Both the position numbers and the translations under genes were made by a program. From an uncultured Nitrososphaerales archaeon (GTDB taxonomy: Archaea > Thermoproteota > Nitrososphaeria > Nitrososphaerales > Nitrososphaeraceae): a DNA stretch of 64,000 nucleotides. Within the stretch, counting starts at the first letter, position 1; every line of letters begins with the position of its first letter. The stretch covers positions 768,001 through 832,000 of the forward strand of contig CAVQMO010000001.1 of assembly GCA_963713605.1 (NCBI GenBank), read 5' to 3'. A model generated the notes under the pieces. The model was given only the letters and a program-made list of their open reading frames with translations. It was not told the origin of the DNA and did not search any database. Shown here piece by piece: positions 36,674 through 46,263 of this stretch.

Positions 36674-36779
36674 AGATAATAATCAGATAATCGAAGTCGT
36701 TGACCGCTGCCTACTATTACTTGGAGACGAGTTCAAAAATCTTAAACTCGTCAATCTAGTGAAGTTTCTGATCGTCGAA

Positions 36780-37269
36780 ATGCCAGCAGAACAATTTGAT
36801 CTAGTAGCCACAGGAGGCACATTCGATGAAATCCATGCCGGGCATCGGGAATTGCTAACTATGGCGTTCAGTTTGGGAAAATCAGTGCTGATAGGGGTCT
36901 CAAGTGACAATTTTGTGGCAGCAAAGAAAGGCAAAAATAGAATAATTCACAGGTTCGAAACTAGAGTAGATACGATTAATTCAATTCATTAATGATGAGT
37001 TTGGAAATGTCAATTTCGAGATTAAAGAGTTAAATGACGATTTTGGACCTACAAGCACGGACAGAAATCTCCAAGCTCTTGTTGTCAGCGAAGAAACTGA
37101 ACAGAAGGGGCATGAAATTAATAGGATTCGGTCAAAGAAAGGATTTGCCCCTTTGGTAATCGTCACTGTCGCAATGTTAAAGGCAGAAGACGGTCGACCA
37201 CTCTCATCATCTCGAATTCGCTATGGAGAAATTGATAGGTACGGGAGAGTCTTAAGGAAGTGGAGTTGA
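36780..37269 (+). CDS. coaD: Phosphopantetheine adenylyltransferase (frameshift near 36980)
   Basis: GGTFDEIHAGH; second frame gives DDFGP, ALVVSEET, AEDGRPLSSSRIRYGEID. Confidence 0.9.
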
Positions 37270-37450: not shown

Positions 37451-37762
37451 TTATCCTATATCTATCTGGACGGTATTTCTATGTGTACGAATGGACAGGG
37501 GCTTTCTCCCCTCAAATAGCATCATATAGACAGTCTTTTGAAGCCTTACAGCGGATTCTTTGTCCGACATCATTATGCTATGCGAACTATCATCATCTAA
37601 AACTACTATCAGTTCCCTCTCGCCGACGGTAGATACATGTTTGAGGTTATGCTGTTCTCTATTTGGGGATAATATCCACATCAGTTTCTCAGCCTCGTAC
37701 TCGTCCTCACAAACGATATCTTGTGTGTTCCTGGTAGAGCTATTCAAAGGGATTTTCCTCAT
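37451..37762 (-). CDS. Hypothetical protein downstream of trpS
   Basis: About 103-aa ORF from ATG overlapping the trpS 3' end. Confidence 0.6.
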   Translation of the reverse strand: MRKIPLNSSTRNTQDIVCEDEYEAEKLMWILSPNREQHNLKHVSTVGERELIVVLDDDSSHSIMMSDKESAVRLQKTVYMMLFEGRKPLSIRTHRNTVQIDIG

Positions 37763-38922
37763 AAAGAAACGAATCGATTTGATTCCTTGCTTGGTCTCTT
37801 CGCCTAGTAAACTCTGACATAAACAACTTTGTCTGAGTTGTAAGATCAGATTTACATTCCCCACATAATAGATTACCTGTTCTACATTTCAGAGATCGTT
37901 CAAAGGAATCCTTTCCGTCGTCAAAGAAATGGCTTAAGTACCAAAATACTGGACATGCATCTGGATCTCCTCCCAGTATCCTTTGGAGTCTAACCGACGG
38001 TTGCCCTCCAGTGTACGCGCCTGAAATCTTGCTTTCAATTGTTTCTGGGTCGTCGGTTGTAAAAATAGCACCGGTTGGGTTTGAAGATGACATCTTGCCA
38101 TTCATTTCAAGACTTGGTACAAACTTGCTGTGAATTTGTGCCGGTTTATGGTATCCCATCTTCTCTGCGATGTCTCTTGTAATCCTCCAGTAAGGGTCTT
38201 GATCAATTGGAGCAGGGATTAACACACGCGTGGGTTTCTTTTCGATCAACGACGGCAAAAAACAAGGGGCAGCCTGAATAGCGGGAAACCCTATCATCCC
38301 AATATTAGACGAAGGTTTATACCCAAATACGGCTTTTGCAGTAGAAAAGGTTATCTTTTTTGCGATCTCTAGATAGAGAGGATATAAAGTTTGTATGTTT
38401 CTTGTATTCACTATAATTCGAGTCAGCTTGGGGTCGAATCCAGTTGCTATGACATCGAGGATATTGTCGTACGCGTACTTCTCTACTTCTTGTAAGCTGA
38501 AGGTGTTGACTATAGAGGAATTTTTCGTCATCGGTAATCTGAAATAACAGCCTGGATCGAAATGTGTCTTGTAGATACTTCGTGAAAAACCAAGGCATTA
38601 AGTGACCCATATGAACATGGCCAGAAGGCCCTCTGCCGGTATAGAGGTAAAAATTTTCACCATTTCTATATGCGTCTAATACTACGTCAAAATCCCTGTG
38701 GGAAAAAAAGAAGCCACGTGCTAAGAGAGGATGAATGCTTCCGGAAAACATCTGCAATTTCTCGATAATTTCAGGAGTGATTAACCGGGTGCCGAAATCT
38801 TGGACAATCTTATTGTAGTCAACAACTCCATCGACTTGCCAAGGCGTAACGCTATACCCTCCTTCCAAATTACCAGCTTCATTACCTCCTGATTCTTCGA
38901 TTTCCTCGTCTCGTTCACCCAT
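37740..38922 (-). CDS. trpS: Tryptophanyl-tRNA synthetase (frameshift near 38500)
   Basis: VTPW, YTGRGPSGHVHMGH, DDEK, DQDPY, KMSSS. Confidence 0.95.
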
Positions 38923-42171: not shown

Positions 42172-42694
42172 AATGTCCGTTATCTATGTGAACTACGAGC
42201 GTGATTAAGTGAGTATTTTTAGCGAAGTCATCATCGACGATTTCAATATCGTTGTAAATTTGAGCCTCAAGGGCTCCATCTACGCAGGTTGTAGTCGACT
42301 AGTTTTTATATTTGCGTGCACAATTACTGGAATTTTCAACCAGCTTTGTTAAATGCTTCTATGGTCTGACATAAATGAGAACTGGTATCGTACCCATTTG
42401 TTTCATCGTGCGGTCTTTCCAGAATACCAAAATCATGAGTACCTGTCTTTATAAGTAACGCTACATGTCAGCATAGGCCATTTAGTAAGGACTTTTGAAA
42501 TATTTTCTTGTTCAACATGGACCCATCGCTCAGACCGTAGTAGTATTATTCAAATATATACGTCTACAATCTCCCTTGTTATCCCCGTTAGAGAGTACGC
42601 TAGGAGGGAATACACATGAGTGTAACAGGCTACCAATGAATAGTAGTGGGTCAGAGGCGGGGGACATTTTATCAACATTTCGATTCACCTAAAA

Positions 42695-42868
42695 TCACCT
42701 AAAATCATCTATCACATTTTTTATAATAGACTTTGCTTCAGAAGAAATATCATAATCGGCTAGCACTTTGGTTGGTTCTGTAAGCAAGAGTCTTCTGAAA
42801 TTTGGTTCGCTAGCTGCCCTAAGAAGTATTTCGCCCACAATTTTAACATCCCCGTTTCTGATTCCCAA
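42695..42868 (-). CDS. Small NHLP-clan (nitrile-hydratase-leader-like / Os1348-like) protein, candidate RiPP precursor or leader
   Basis: Manual translation from TTG 42868: MGIRNGDVKIVGEILLRAASEPNFRRLLLTEPTKVLADYDISSEAKSIIKNVIDDFR*; matches the RAxxDxxFRxxLxxDPxxxLxxYxL pattern; divergent from ycaO. Confidence 0.7.
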   Translation of the reverse strand: MGIRNGDVKIVGEILLRAASEPNFRRLLLTEPTKVLADYDISSEAKSIIKNVIDDFR

Positions 42869-42966
42869 TCAGAATCATGCTATATATGGAATCTTAATTT
42901 GTGCCTTTCTACCTATAGTACACCACAAGAACATTATTATTCTGAAAATTTGATTCCGATTATGTA

Positions 42967-44273
42967 TTGCGACTAGTAGACCGCTTTAAATGGTCCGATA
43001 ATGGCACAAGTAGAATTCAACCTCCAGAAAAGACTCTTCTCACAGTGGAGGGGATCACAGGAAAGATTGGGGTGACTCGAATTGGCAACATTACTCATCT
43101 GGACAGACTTGGTATTCCTAATTATTCAGTTGTTCTGCCCGGTACCGAGGATTACATTTGGGTCTATAGCGGAAAGGGTTTCACCATGAAGCAAGCCAGG
43201 ACAAGCGGCCTTATGGAAGCTATAGAACGATACTCTTCTTTGCCTGGCAGCTATGAGCGTCAGTTAATCAGAGGTTCATATTTTGAACTATCAAAAAGAT
43301 ATAATATACTTAGTTCAGACGATGTTTGCGAACCACTCTCTGTTCCATATAGGGATGATATGATAATGGATTACATTGAAGGCTTAGACCTGGTTTCATA
43401 TGAACAAATTCTGGTACCTGCCGCCTTGGCTTTGTTTAGGTACACTCAGCACGGTAAGGCTGTCAATCCGTTCTCTTTCTCTCACACGAACGGACTCGCA
43501 TCAGGAAATGTCTTGGAGGAGGCAATCTGTCATGCCTTATGCGAAGTTATTGAGCGAGATGCATCAAGTCTAGCCGAATTACGTTCGAGTGCCTTTCCAT
43601 TTCATCTATTAAAGATCCTGACAAACAAGTTTAAGGAGAGCGGGTACGCAATTAATGAAATTGCTTCCGATGCTATGGTTGATGAACCAAACTTGTTTCC
43701 TATGCTCGATTTAGAAGGTAATATCTTCCATCCGGCAAGAAATTTAGTGGATAGATTTAAGGCCGCAAATATTTCCTTGATAATCAAGGAGATTACAAGT
43801 GACGTGGGAATATCAACATTCAACGCTGCAAGCGTTGAATGGCTGACTCAAAATTACGGTTATCTTGCTGAAGGAACGGGCACACACCCAGACGCTAGGA
43901 TTGCGCTTGTCAGGGCAATTACCGAACTTGCTCAGACTCGAGCGGCCAACATCCAAGGTGCTCGAGACGATCTTCGCAAAATTAATTACGTGGGTGAAAA
44001 TTCAGAGGACAAGAGGTCGTGGCAATTTTTGAATTCAGATCGAAAGGTTCGTCTCTCAGGGGTCAGAGCTACTACAATCAAAACATACTAGATGATATAA
44101 GGTTGATCCTCAACCAGCTTAGAGCCGTGGGACTAAAGAGAGCTATTGTGGTGGATCTAACGGTACCGTGGATAGGAATTCCTGTCGTAAGGGCCATCGT
44201 ACCAGGTTTGGAAACATTCAAGTTCACAAAATCTGTAGTAGGTCAAAGGGCAAGGAATTATTTCAAGGCATGA
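42967..44273 (+). CDS. ycaO: YcaO-family ATP-dependent amide-activating enzyme, TfuA-associated (frameshift near 44068)
   Basis: ITHLDRLGIP, SGKG, SGLMEAIER, TNGLASGN..EE..HALCEVIERD, RAITELAQTR, IQGARDD, PVVRAIVPGLE. Confidence 0.93.
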
Positions 44274-44929
44274 AAAACATAATTGTTTTTGTCGGTCCTA
44301 GTTTAGATACAGAAAAGGCACGAAAGGTGTTGGAAGCGGACTATAGACCTCCAGCAAAGAAAGGAGACTTGATCAGATTGGTCATGTCGTTGGACGACAA
44401 AGAGACTGTGGTAGGGCTAATAGATGGATATTTTTTGCTTGATTATCCTCCCACGCCTATTGAAGTTTATCAACTGATAGTTAGACACAATACTGTAGTG
44501 ATAGGATCATCAAGTATAGGGGCCCTAAGAGCAGTTGAGCTAGAGAAATTCGGAATGATCGGTGTGGGAAAGATATTCCAATTATTCAAGACAGGGAGAC
44601 TAGATGCGGACGACGAGGTAGCTGTGACTTTTTCTCAGGACTTGTACCACCTTCAGTCTGAAGCGATGATAGATATTCGATATAACCTATACCTATCGCT
44701 GAAGAAAGGGTTTATCGATAAGGAAACCAAATACGCTATCACTAAGGTAGCCAAGGATATCTATTTTCCATTTCGAACATACCAAAACATTGTTGAAGAA
44801 ACCATTAGGAGATATCCCATTCTGGACGATAAAGTGAGACGCTTCGAAGCCTACATTTTTAAAAATAGGAAGAGTCTAAAAGAGATGGATGCTTTGAAAC
44901 TTATTGAGTATATCAGAGATATGTTTTAG
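44270..44929 (+). CDS. tfuA: TfuA-like protein (thioamidation partner)
   Basis: VFVGPSL, RPPAKKGD, GLIDGYF, GSSSIGALRAVEL, GVGKIF, DDEVAV, SEAMIDIR; ATGA overlap with ycaO stop. Confidence 0.92.
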   Translation: MKNIIVFVGPSLDTEKARKVLEADYRPPAKKGDLIRLVMSLDDKETVVGLIDGYFLLDYPPTPIEVYQLIVRHNTVVIGSSSIGALRAVELEKFGMIGVGKIFQLFKTGRLDADDEVAVTFSQDLYHLQSEAMIDIRYNLYLSLKKGFIDKETKYAITKVAKDIYFPFRTYQNIVEETIRRYPILDDKVRRFEAYIFKNRKSLKEMDALKLIEYIRDMF

Positions 44930-45074
44930 AAATGTTCAGATTAGAATTCTAATGACAGGACAAAAGGAAAACTTTCAAAGCCCACACGGAATGGTTTAAT
45001 TTTGTATGAATACATACTGCGGATTAGTCAGAAAGAAAGTACGTCTATATTCGTAGTCTAAATTATTGGTAAAT

Positions 45075-46263
45075 ATGCAGTCCATTGAACCTATAGCTCT
45101 TTCTATATTAGGTTTTATCATGTTCTCAGTCCTGCTCACTTGGGTACGCTTGTTAATGTATTGCAAAAGGTCATTGAAATATTCGCCGAAACTCGAAGAG
45201 GTCAGAACGCTCGACCCTAATCTTACACCTCGAGTCAGCATAATTGTACCTGCGTTGAATGAAGAAAAATACATAGGCAGGTGCTTACAAAGCCTTCTAG
45301 CTCAGGACTATCATAATCTTGAGATAATATCCATAGATGATGGTTCAATAGACAGTACTCTTCTGACGATGAAGTCAGTAGCATCAACAGACCAAAGACT
45401 TCGCGTAGTTGAAGCTGGGCAGAGGCCGGGCGGCTGGGTAGGGAAAAATTGGGCCTGCTTTATAGGCTATAACAATTCGACAGGAGACATTCTTATCTTT
45501 ACTGATGCGGATACTGTTCACTCCAAAAAGACTGTTACCTTAGCAGTAAACCATATGTTGCAAGAGAACCTCTCCGCGATTACGGCTATTCCAAAACTGT
45601 TGTCTGATGATTTCCTAACTAGCGTCACATTGCCCCTCCTCTCGGTTTTTTTGCAGACCAGGTTTTCTCCTCTGAAAGTAAACGATCCTGCAAACAAGTT
45701 GGGGTATTTTTTTGGAAGTTTCTTTGCTATTATTCGAGGCCACTATGAATCTATTGGGACTCACAGGGAAGTTCATACAGAAATAATTGAAGATGGAGCA
45801 ATTGGGTCGCTTGTAAAAAAAAAGAGGGATAAGGATGAAAATGTTTAGAGGAGAAAACTGCGTTGATGCATTGTGGGCGAGGGACAGACAAGGATTATGG
45901 AATGGGCTGTTACGACTCTTGATTCCTATGCACAGAGAACAGGGTAAGAAGACAGTTCCAATGGTGATTGCAATTGCCTTCCTAATGTTATTTCCATTCA
46001 TGGCTTTACCAGGAGGAATTTATTTTGCAAACCTGTTAGATTCAAGCTTTCTAGGCATTTTTCTTGCCGGCGCTGCACTGATTACTTTGTGCATTATGAT
46101 GATGACAACTATCCTTATCCTTTCTCAATCGATTAAGACTAGCAGGAAGTTGGCTCTCGGGTCACCGATAGGAGCAACCGTCATAACATTGTCCTTTGTT
46201 ATTTCCCTGCTCAGAGCCCACAAGCCTCGGTCCTTCGCCTGGAAAGGAAGAACGTACGTGTAG
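45075..46263 (+). CDS. Membrane GT2 glycosyltransferase (HpnB/CrtQ-like; frameshift in A8 run near 45820)
   Basis: VSIIVPALNEE, DDGSID, GWVGKNWAC, FTDAD, IIEDG, C-terminal TMs and WKGRTY. Confidence 0.88.

Follow-up and report, generated by a model that had tools for sequence, protein, structure and literature searches.

What does a YcaO-TfuA pair modify in an ammonia oxidiser without methyl-coenzyme M reductase, and why does a very small gene stand next to it? This question is raised by a stretch of 64,000 nucleotides (the window, meaning the whole stretch of DNA that was analysed) from an uncultured Nitrososphaerales archaeon, contig CAVQMO010000001.1, positions 768,001 to 832,000, in which ycaO is followed by tfuA and faced, on the opposite strand, by an open reading frame (ORF) for a protein of 57 amino acids (aa). 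A preliminary description of this DNA had proposed a candidate thioamitide system, that is, a peptide made by ribosomes and modified after translation (RiPP), with the small protein as candidate substrate or recognition partner. The explanation that we favour, with modest confidence, is a different one: the three genes would form a housekeeping module of ammonia-oxidising archaea (AOA) that puts a thioamide into the backbone of a cellular protein whose gene lies elsewhere, and the 57-aa protein would be a helical bundle without a core, docking as an accessory subunit on an insertion that is specific to this YcaO clade.

To follow the distribution of the genes, we used 300 genomes from the order with a completeness of 80% or more, not counting the genome of the window. 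One of them, G013, is marked as unpublished, and none of the statements below depends on this genome by itself. tfuA is present in a single copy in every genome of three amoA-bearing families (89 of 89 in f1, 8 of 8 in f4 and 10 of 10 in f9; 107 of 107 together) and in 3 of 10 genomes of f12, while it was not found in f13 (0 of 89), f10 (0 of 58) or the other families of the order in this sample. The YcaO family has the same profile, apart from one weak match below the cut-off in f10. From their content, f1 appears to be Nitrososphaeraceae, f9 Nitrosocaldaceae and f13 Nitrosopumilaceae. All five genomes tested from f1, f4 and f9 carry amoA, as do this genome and both genomes tested from f13, and none of the three tested from f10 and f12 does. 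McrA (PF02249) was found in none of five AOA genomes, this one included, and the earlier statement that an ammonia oxidiser here has a YcaO-TfuA pair and no McrA therefore holds.

The small gene follows the pair closely. It is present in 88 of 89 genomes of f1, 7 of 8 of f4 and 9 of 10 of f9, the other matches listed being weak and partial (E > 5e-5), and all 105 genomes with a strong match also carry tfuA. In 72 of the 107 tfuA-bearing AOA genomes the small gene lies no more than 4.5 kb from tfuA, in 32 it has another location, and in 3 it is missing; in two of these last three, tfuA is close to the end of a contig, and the completeness of the third genome is 88%. Most of the unlinked cases (28 of 32) belong to genus g14, where the small gene has moved to another neighbourhood, and some of the others possibly reflect contig breaks. 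The conservation proposed as a check in the preliminary description is thus seen in 104 of 107 genomes, but its linkage only in 72. That the gene is kept after unlinking argues for a functional tie to ycaO-tfuA.

A further 300 genomes of the phylum contain TfuA in 26 cases from two families, and all five non-AOA TfuA genomes tested encode McrA. In the genomes with a McrA-type YcaO-TfuA pair the small gene was not found (0 of 3 in f12, 0 of 5 in f26/f52), and the YcaO insertion described below is missing from them too. The three f12 genomes (L061-L063; G080, G118 and G096) belong to the same order as the window and carry McrA together with a McrA-type ycaO-tfuA operon and no small gene; the one tested has no amoA.

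The small ORF is a genuine coding gene. Its dN/dS is 0.19 across 12 congeners, and it contains no in-frame stop in comparison with 11-92 in the other five frames. By tblastn it was recovered head-to-head with ycaO in 26 of 29 loci of relatives (one copy being frameshifted); the three misses comprise one locus cut by a contig end and two whose genomes hold the gene elsewhere.

What the gene encodes looks like a leader-type fold without cargo, as judged from its sequence family and model. The AlphaFold2 model is an all-helical bundle (pLDDT, the predicted local distance difference test, 89) with helices at residues 2-20, 22-30, 32-36 and 43-56 and no strands. NHLP-clan models match the ORF below their cut-offs (Os1348 model NF038399, 21.3 bits against 40, E 2e-4; PF14407, 17.9 against 48), and a profile of 82 homologues finds nitrile hydratase alpha with E values down to 8e-8, as well as a weak match to the NHLP structure 9cjx (E 0.005). 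The top fold matches are weak, namely LigA 1b4u (Z 5.5, root-mean-square deviation 2.4, 50 aligned residues) and then the C-terminal domain of DesB, followed by borosin proteins and Os1348 (Z 4.4-5.5 over LigA, 9cgw SonA and 6lk7). A Foldseek search with the model gave no match at E <= 0.001, and in the ESM Atlas the protein falls in an archaeal cluster of its own (0.90), the Os1348 and Franean clusters lying below 0.9.

All 82 homologues stop 4-7 residues past position 53, just beyond the NHLP-type bundle. Both termini are variable, Gly is absent altogether from 54 of the 82 and none is conserved. Proteusin precursors carry a beta-hairpin, an LxxxxL helix, a double-Gly motif and a core after the bundle (available text of PMC10858898); no beta1-beta2, LxxxxL helix, double-Gly or core was seen in the 82 homologues or in the model. 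The NHLP-clan leader pattern reported earlier for this ORF is therefore right as to the helical bundle and the profile likeness, but does not reach the cut-offs of the family models or extend to the motifs of a leader that ends in a core. A search for fused or longer forms gave one match, a form that reads through into the downstream non-coding element; this outcome is weak evidence that such forms are absent. Longer NHLP-like proteins, bacterial or archaeal and bearing tails or repeats, also came up in the library search (P0004, P0009, P0016, P0020 and P0021). For example, P0004, of 769 aa, has four NHLP-like repeats that all close with a conserved LLCAxGGPCG tail, fused to a secreted-looking N-terminal part, and is possibly a multi-core RiPP precursor.

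The two pieces of ycaO match PF02624 (E 1.8e-55 and 3.1e-11), the ATP-binding motifs SGLMEAIER and TNGLASG..E..EVIERD are both in the sequence as had been claimed, and E84, E87, R88, N175, E193, E196 and R197 are invariant in 83 sequences; the closest solved relative is MJ1094 (6pe3, E 5e-42). TfuA matches PF07812 (E 2.5e-33) and, along its full length, the solved 6xp8 (E 3e-30). Its S82 and K204 do not vary across 76 sequences and would correspond to the Ser/Lys pair that is reportedly catalytic in TfuA. Scores stay under the curated cut-offs of TIGR03266 and NF033432, with 224.2 and 47 against 365 for the ycaO pieces (scored on the broken gene) and 207.1 bits against 235.2 for TfuA with NF033432. 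The uL16-type model NF040716 gives this YcaO 27.8 bits against a cut-off of 700, and TfuA adjoins it, so the protein does not class with the uL16 type.

The ycaO frame is interrupted in this assembly by one missing base near 44066, compared with six of six aligned congeners. It is unbroken in 28 of 29 relatives' loci, the remaining one being cut by a contig end, and the congeners' YcaO is about 435 aa long. The assembly is rich in indels: 13 of 65 tested genes match in at least two frames, including ycaO, MCM helicase, TrpS and DnaK (names from our own reading of the sequence). Within the window, neighbours resembling a phosphopantetheine adenylyltransferase gene (36759-37159), trpS (37740-38922) and a glycosyltransferase family 2 (GT2) gene (45066-46263), partly named from sequence reading, also look split by frameshifts. 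These split neighbours and multi-frame genes make an error in the assembly the likely cause of the interruption.

The AOA YcaO clade alone bears an insertion, about 35 residues long, that follows the EVIERDA motif; it is absent in the McrA-type and bacterial rows of the alignment and in all three f12 rows. Its D239 is invariant in 72 of 72 core YcaOs and 8 of 8 paralogous ones. The AOA YcaOs share 38% identity with McrA-type enzymes and 29% with six bacterial YcaOs, in comparison with 55% between the f12 and McrA-type proteins. Two maximum-likelihood trees were run in quick mode, the second after removal of 21 of 68 rows that were truncated, redundant or on long branches. The AOA YcaOs group in a single clade (SH-aLRT 99-100), and next to it stands the McrA-type clade, with f12 among its members; the join of the two has an SH-aLRT of 99. 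The phylogenetic check proposed earlier therefore gives a separate AOA clade beside the McrA type in both trees, but a forced clade of AOA and f12 is not rejected (p-AU, from the approximately unbiased test, 0.09). Descent of the AOA YcaO from the f12 McrA-type YcaO is not favoured, the 38% identity to f12 being the same as to other McrA-type enzymes, though this p-AU does not reject it.

Several TfuA-less YcaO paralogues from other genomes (L037-L045, L046 and L162) are nested in the AOA clade and stand beside a conserved 39-40-aa peptide ending in PGDxTxxxHN. The same loci contain several Trp-rich paralogous genes of about 200-290 aa, and the whole looks like a separate RiPP-like system. The C-terminus of the peptide resembles a loop of uS11 in spacing, with uS11 outside the 25 best-scoring matches. 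We considered this peptide as a hidden substrate of the module and dropped it, since it occurs in only 12 of 120 family genomes and has no convincing match here. Some Nitrososphaeraceae (genus g5, L047 and L161) carry an unrelated fused cyclodehydratase-type YcaO of about 830 aa, with a SagB-like neighbour in L047, according to labels read from the sequences.

The small protein and YcaO are predicted to form a complex. YcaO, TfuA and the small protein of an intact congener, each with its own alignment, were submitted to ESMFold2 as a three-chain job together with three controls. Among solved complexes 116 of 157 attain the mark used, and among mismatched pairs 2 of 215, figures that apply only roughly to a three-chain job with our own alignments. 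The ipSAE interface score between YcaO and the small protein is 0.78, 0.78 and 0.76 in comparison with 0.00 for the best control, no less than 96% of the contacts are common to the runs, and the pLDDT of the partner is 85 or higher; when YcaO is swapped for another protein the score falls to 0.00. On the YcaO side the modelled interface comprises residues 211-242, in the insertion, and 433-434, with no ATP-site residue and no TfuA residue listed. On the other side it comprises helix 1, the AASEP turn and helix 3, including the near-invariant A18, A19, P22 and R25. No like complex was found in sequence searches of the PDB, which makes it unlikely that the model reproduces a solved structure. 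Conservation is higher at the interface than in the other residues (0.77 versus 0.60, p 0.014), a difference that is not independent of the prediction as the same alignment was fed to it. From this modelling we consider it quite likely that the small protein binds YcaO. The preliminary description had left open whether it was a substrate or a recognition partner: co-retention and the predicted docking speak for the recognition partner, but the precursor role finds no core, and the protein is placed off the active site.

In the mechanism suggested by the chemistry of these families, YcaO would phosphorylate the backbone amide oxygen of the substrate with ATP, and TfuA would release sulfide from a ThiS-type thiocarboxylate made by unlinked ThiS/ThiF genes (available text of PMC8120280 and PMC13063428). 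The 57-aa bundle would sit on the private insertion of YcaO, off the ATP site, making contact by its helices 1 and 3 and the AASEP turn. It would be a permanent subunit that activates or stabilises the enzyme or adapts substrates to it, instead of a leader attached to a core. The universal retention in single copy suggests that the substrate is a cellular protein, as for McrA (PMC5589413) and uL16 (PMC13063428). Ammonia monooxygenase as an obligatory target is unlikely, because the amoA-bearing f13 (2 of 2 tested) is without the module in 89 of 89 genomes. More tentatively, a RiPP leader fold may have lost its core and become the permanent third subunit of a thioamide synthase, seated on a purpose-built insertion, where it would switch on the enzyme or aim it at a third thioamidated cellular protein; this would have been kept in soil and hot-spring ammonia oxidisers from their common ancestor on, and lost in one family.

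Several observations weigh against the housekeeping module as we describe it. No substrate candidate was obtained, the best McrA-site-like match in the open frames of this genome scoring 29 in comparison with 68-70 for McrA. Related genomes are not independent, and the co-occurrence of small gene and tfuA amounts to one gain and one loss. The docking on YcaO comes from a predicted structure, and the distances of the small protein track the insertion less than the rest of YcaO (Spearman 0.48 versus 0.67, 58 pairs), which gives no specific signal of co-evolution. Eight TfuA-less paralogues retain the insertion without an adjoining small gene, so the two are not tied one to one, and the peptide of these paralogues shows that this YcaO lineage can adjoin RiPP-like peptides. 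The frameshift, finally, was judged from the assembly and the congeners.

These paralogues lend some weight to a split-precursor RiPP, in which the small protein would be a leader acting in trans, and a short core peptide, unlinked to it, would be the substrate and be turned into a thioamitide: they adjoin the conserved peptide in the nine loci that went into the clustering, and an NHLP-type fold is predicted bound to a YcaO. We nevertheless regard it as unlikely, given the rarity of that peptide in the family, its weak and partial N-terminal match in this genome, and the lack of a common tailoring, protease or export gene near 95 loci. Universal single-copy retention is atypical of RiPP clusters, and the AOA set is unlike them in this respect. 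The small protein might itself, in its folded state, receive the thioamide, at an amide within the chain or at one of its ends, being the sole constant neighbour of ycaO-tfuA, and folded proteins can serve YcaO, as uL16 does (available text of PMC13063428). This is improbable for a protein that is nearly all helix, has no modelled contact with ATP-site residues and no conserved Gly, varies at both termini, and has only 4-7 residues past position 53. The strong form of the proposal in the preliminary description, in which the ORF would encode a leader-plus-core precursor within a thioamitide cluster of the classical kind, has the NHLP-clan likeness and the adjacency on its side; it is hardly credible now, being contradicted already by the length distribution of 82 homologues without core, LxxxxL helix or double-Gly. 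The lone longer homologue is a read-through into the downstream non-coding element, the gene is unlinked in 32 of 104 genomes, and the module is a universal single-copy set, not a patchy cluster, with the small protein modelled off the active site.

The distinctness of the YcaO clade (38% identity to the McrA type, 29% to bacterial YcaOs) and a TfuA score under the methanogen cut-off would also fit another chemistry, such as amidine formation or another amide activation, or a small protein that inhibits or regulates instead of helping. We give this a low probability: TfuA is kept in every genome, coupled to ycaO, and is a marker of thioamide-forming YcaOs (available text of PMC8120280 and PMC13063428). 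That the small gene is unrelated to YcaO and merely co-inherited, for example as a LigA-like dioxygenase subunit, seems very improbable. The best fold matches are indeed LigA 1b4u and the DesB C-terminal domain, and the gene is unlinked in genus g14, but the Z-scores are within noise for helical bundles, LigB (PF02900) is above its cut-off in none of five genomes (one weak partial match), and the predicted docking is on a YcaO insertion of matching distribution.

The features of the locus are collected in Table 1. The layout given earlier was recovered, with the small ORF 98 bp upstream of ycaO on the opposite strand and the ATGA overlap of ycaO and tfuA, and the head-to-head order of small gene and ycaO recurs in the linked loci of relatives.

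Table 1. Features of the ycaO-tfuA locus, in positions of the window
Feature	Position	Strand	Remarks
Small ORF (57 aa, TTG start)	42695..42868	-	Core-less NHLP/LigA-type helical protein, predicted YcaO accessory subunit
Divergent intergenic region, 98 bp	42869..42966	.	Probable two-way promoter, from sequence and recurring head-to-head order
ycaO, AOA-specific clade, TTG start 42967	42967..44273	+	PF02624 on both pieces; 1-nt deletion near 44066
AOA-specific YcaO insertion (residues about 210-243)	43594..43695	+	Amphipathic helix and loop, invariant D239; predicted docking site
tfuA, 219 aa, ATG 44270	44270..44929	+	PF07812; ATGA overlap with ycaO TGA, translationally coupled

Among the ORFs of the window no protease, transporter or ThiS gene adjoins the cassette, in agreement with the earlier account. 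Two ThiS-family genes and a ThiS-ThiF fusion sit elsewhere in the same genome, unlinked; the fusion (G000 C1:283907-284858), split over two frames, is a candidate sulfur-donor system for TfuA. Across 95 loci no constant neighbour other than the small gene was found. The pheT and cofG/cofH flanks vary among relatives and change between genera, and functional ties to pheST, the GT2 gene or cofG/cofH were dropped for this reason.

A conserved non-coding element of about 85 nt (42582-42666, + strand) converges on the small gene at its 3' end; it has a TATA-like box upstream and a 3' ACA plus U-run. It is single-copy here, recurs in about 40 retrieved loci that belong to several genera and in part to the same genomes, and has no Rfam match. 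An H/ACA guide RNA would suit its pairing, with 94.7% of cells paired and covariation no higher than in shuffles, and its pocket strands are complementary to helix 69 of the 23S rRNA of this genome, at a site which we take to be the equivalent of E. coli pseudouridine 1917. The element is probably unrelated to YcaO.

The YcaO-TfuA pair of AOA is already in print. The available text of Nayak 2017 (PMC5589413) places AOA homologues in the methanogen YcaO clade, noted since 2017, and names no substrate for them, and a survey counts eight TfuA clusters in Thaumarchaeota (available text of PMC8120280). The third gene was not met in the literature searched: the search, of mostly open-access text and with the supplements of PMC8120280 and Nayak 2017, which could name the small gene, outside its scope, gave no paper on the partner, the insertion or the substrate. 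According to the available text of PMC13063428, McrA and uL16 are the only two cellular proteins described as thioamidated.

The pair is here seen as a single-copy core trait of three AOA families, together with an overlooked third gene, and reconstitutions or proteome-wide structure screens ought to include the small protein. The AOA family that lacks the module is a natural negative control for proteomics. If the more tentative reading above is true, key nitrifiers would carry a new post-translational modification, and YcaO enzymes would have a natural leader-in-trans design. An evolutionary route from RiPP leader to enzyme subunit is also suggested.

In comparison with known systems, the thioamitide RiPP clusters of the thioviridamide type have YcaO and TfuA in common with the AOA set, which differs from them by its core-genome distribution, the lack of a leader-plus-core precursor and of tailoring genes, and 29% YcaO identity to the sampled bacterial proteins. 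The bundles of LigA, borosin-binding domains and Os1348 (1b4u, 9cgw and 6lk7) are a similar small docking fold at weak Z-scores; compared with Os1348 (85 aa; available text of PMC7726476), the small protein is shorter, has no core and has YcaO as its partner enzyme. Closer in arrangement are the NHLP/proteusin systems MprE/MprC (8tb1 and 9cjx) and DprE/DprM, where a folded helical bundle likewise sets helix 1 on the modifying enzyme, as is predicted here. According to the available text, the alpha1 helix of the MprE bundle engages the RiPP recognition element (RRE) of the YcaO MprC (PMC12455567), and DprM was modelled with an extra helix, absent from homologues, against the bundle (PMC12537861). 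The AOA set differs in consisting of the bundle only, with a stand-alone, TfuA-paired YcaO that has no RRE/E1 part. In E. coli YcaO, which acts on uL16, there is an earlier case of a housekeeping YcaO with a folded protein of an unlinked gene as its thioamidation target (available text of PMC13063428), although it belongs to another subfamily, whose members are without TfuA. The YcaO-TfuA pair of methanogens and anaerobic methanotrophic archaea (McrA thioglycine) differs by its substrate McrA, by the low identity to the AOA enzyme, and by having neither the insertion nor, in 8 of 8 McrA-type genomes, the small partner; with the AOA set it shares the same adjoining genes, the conserved ATP-site residues, vertical single-copy inheritance and the position of a sister clade.

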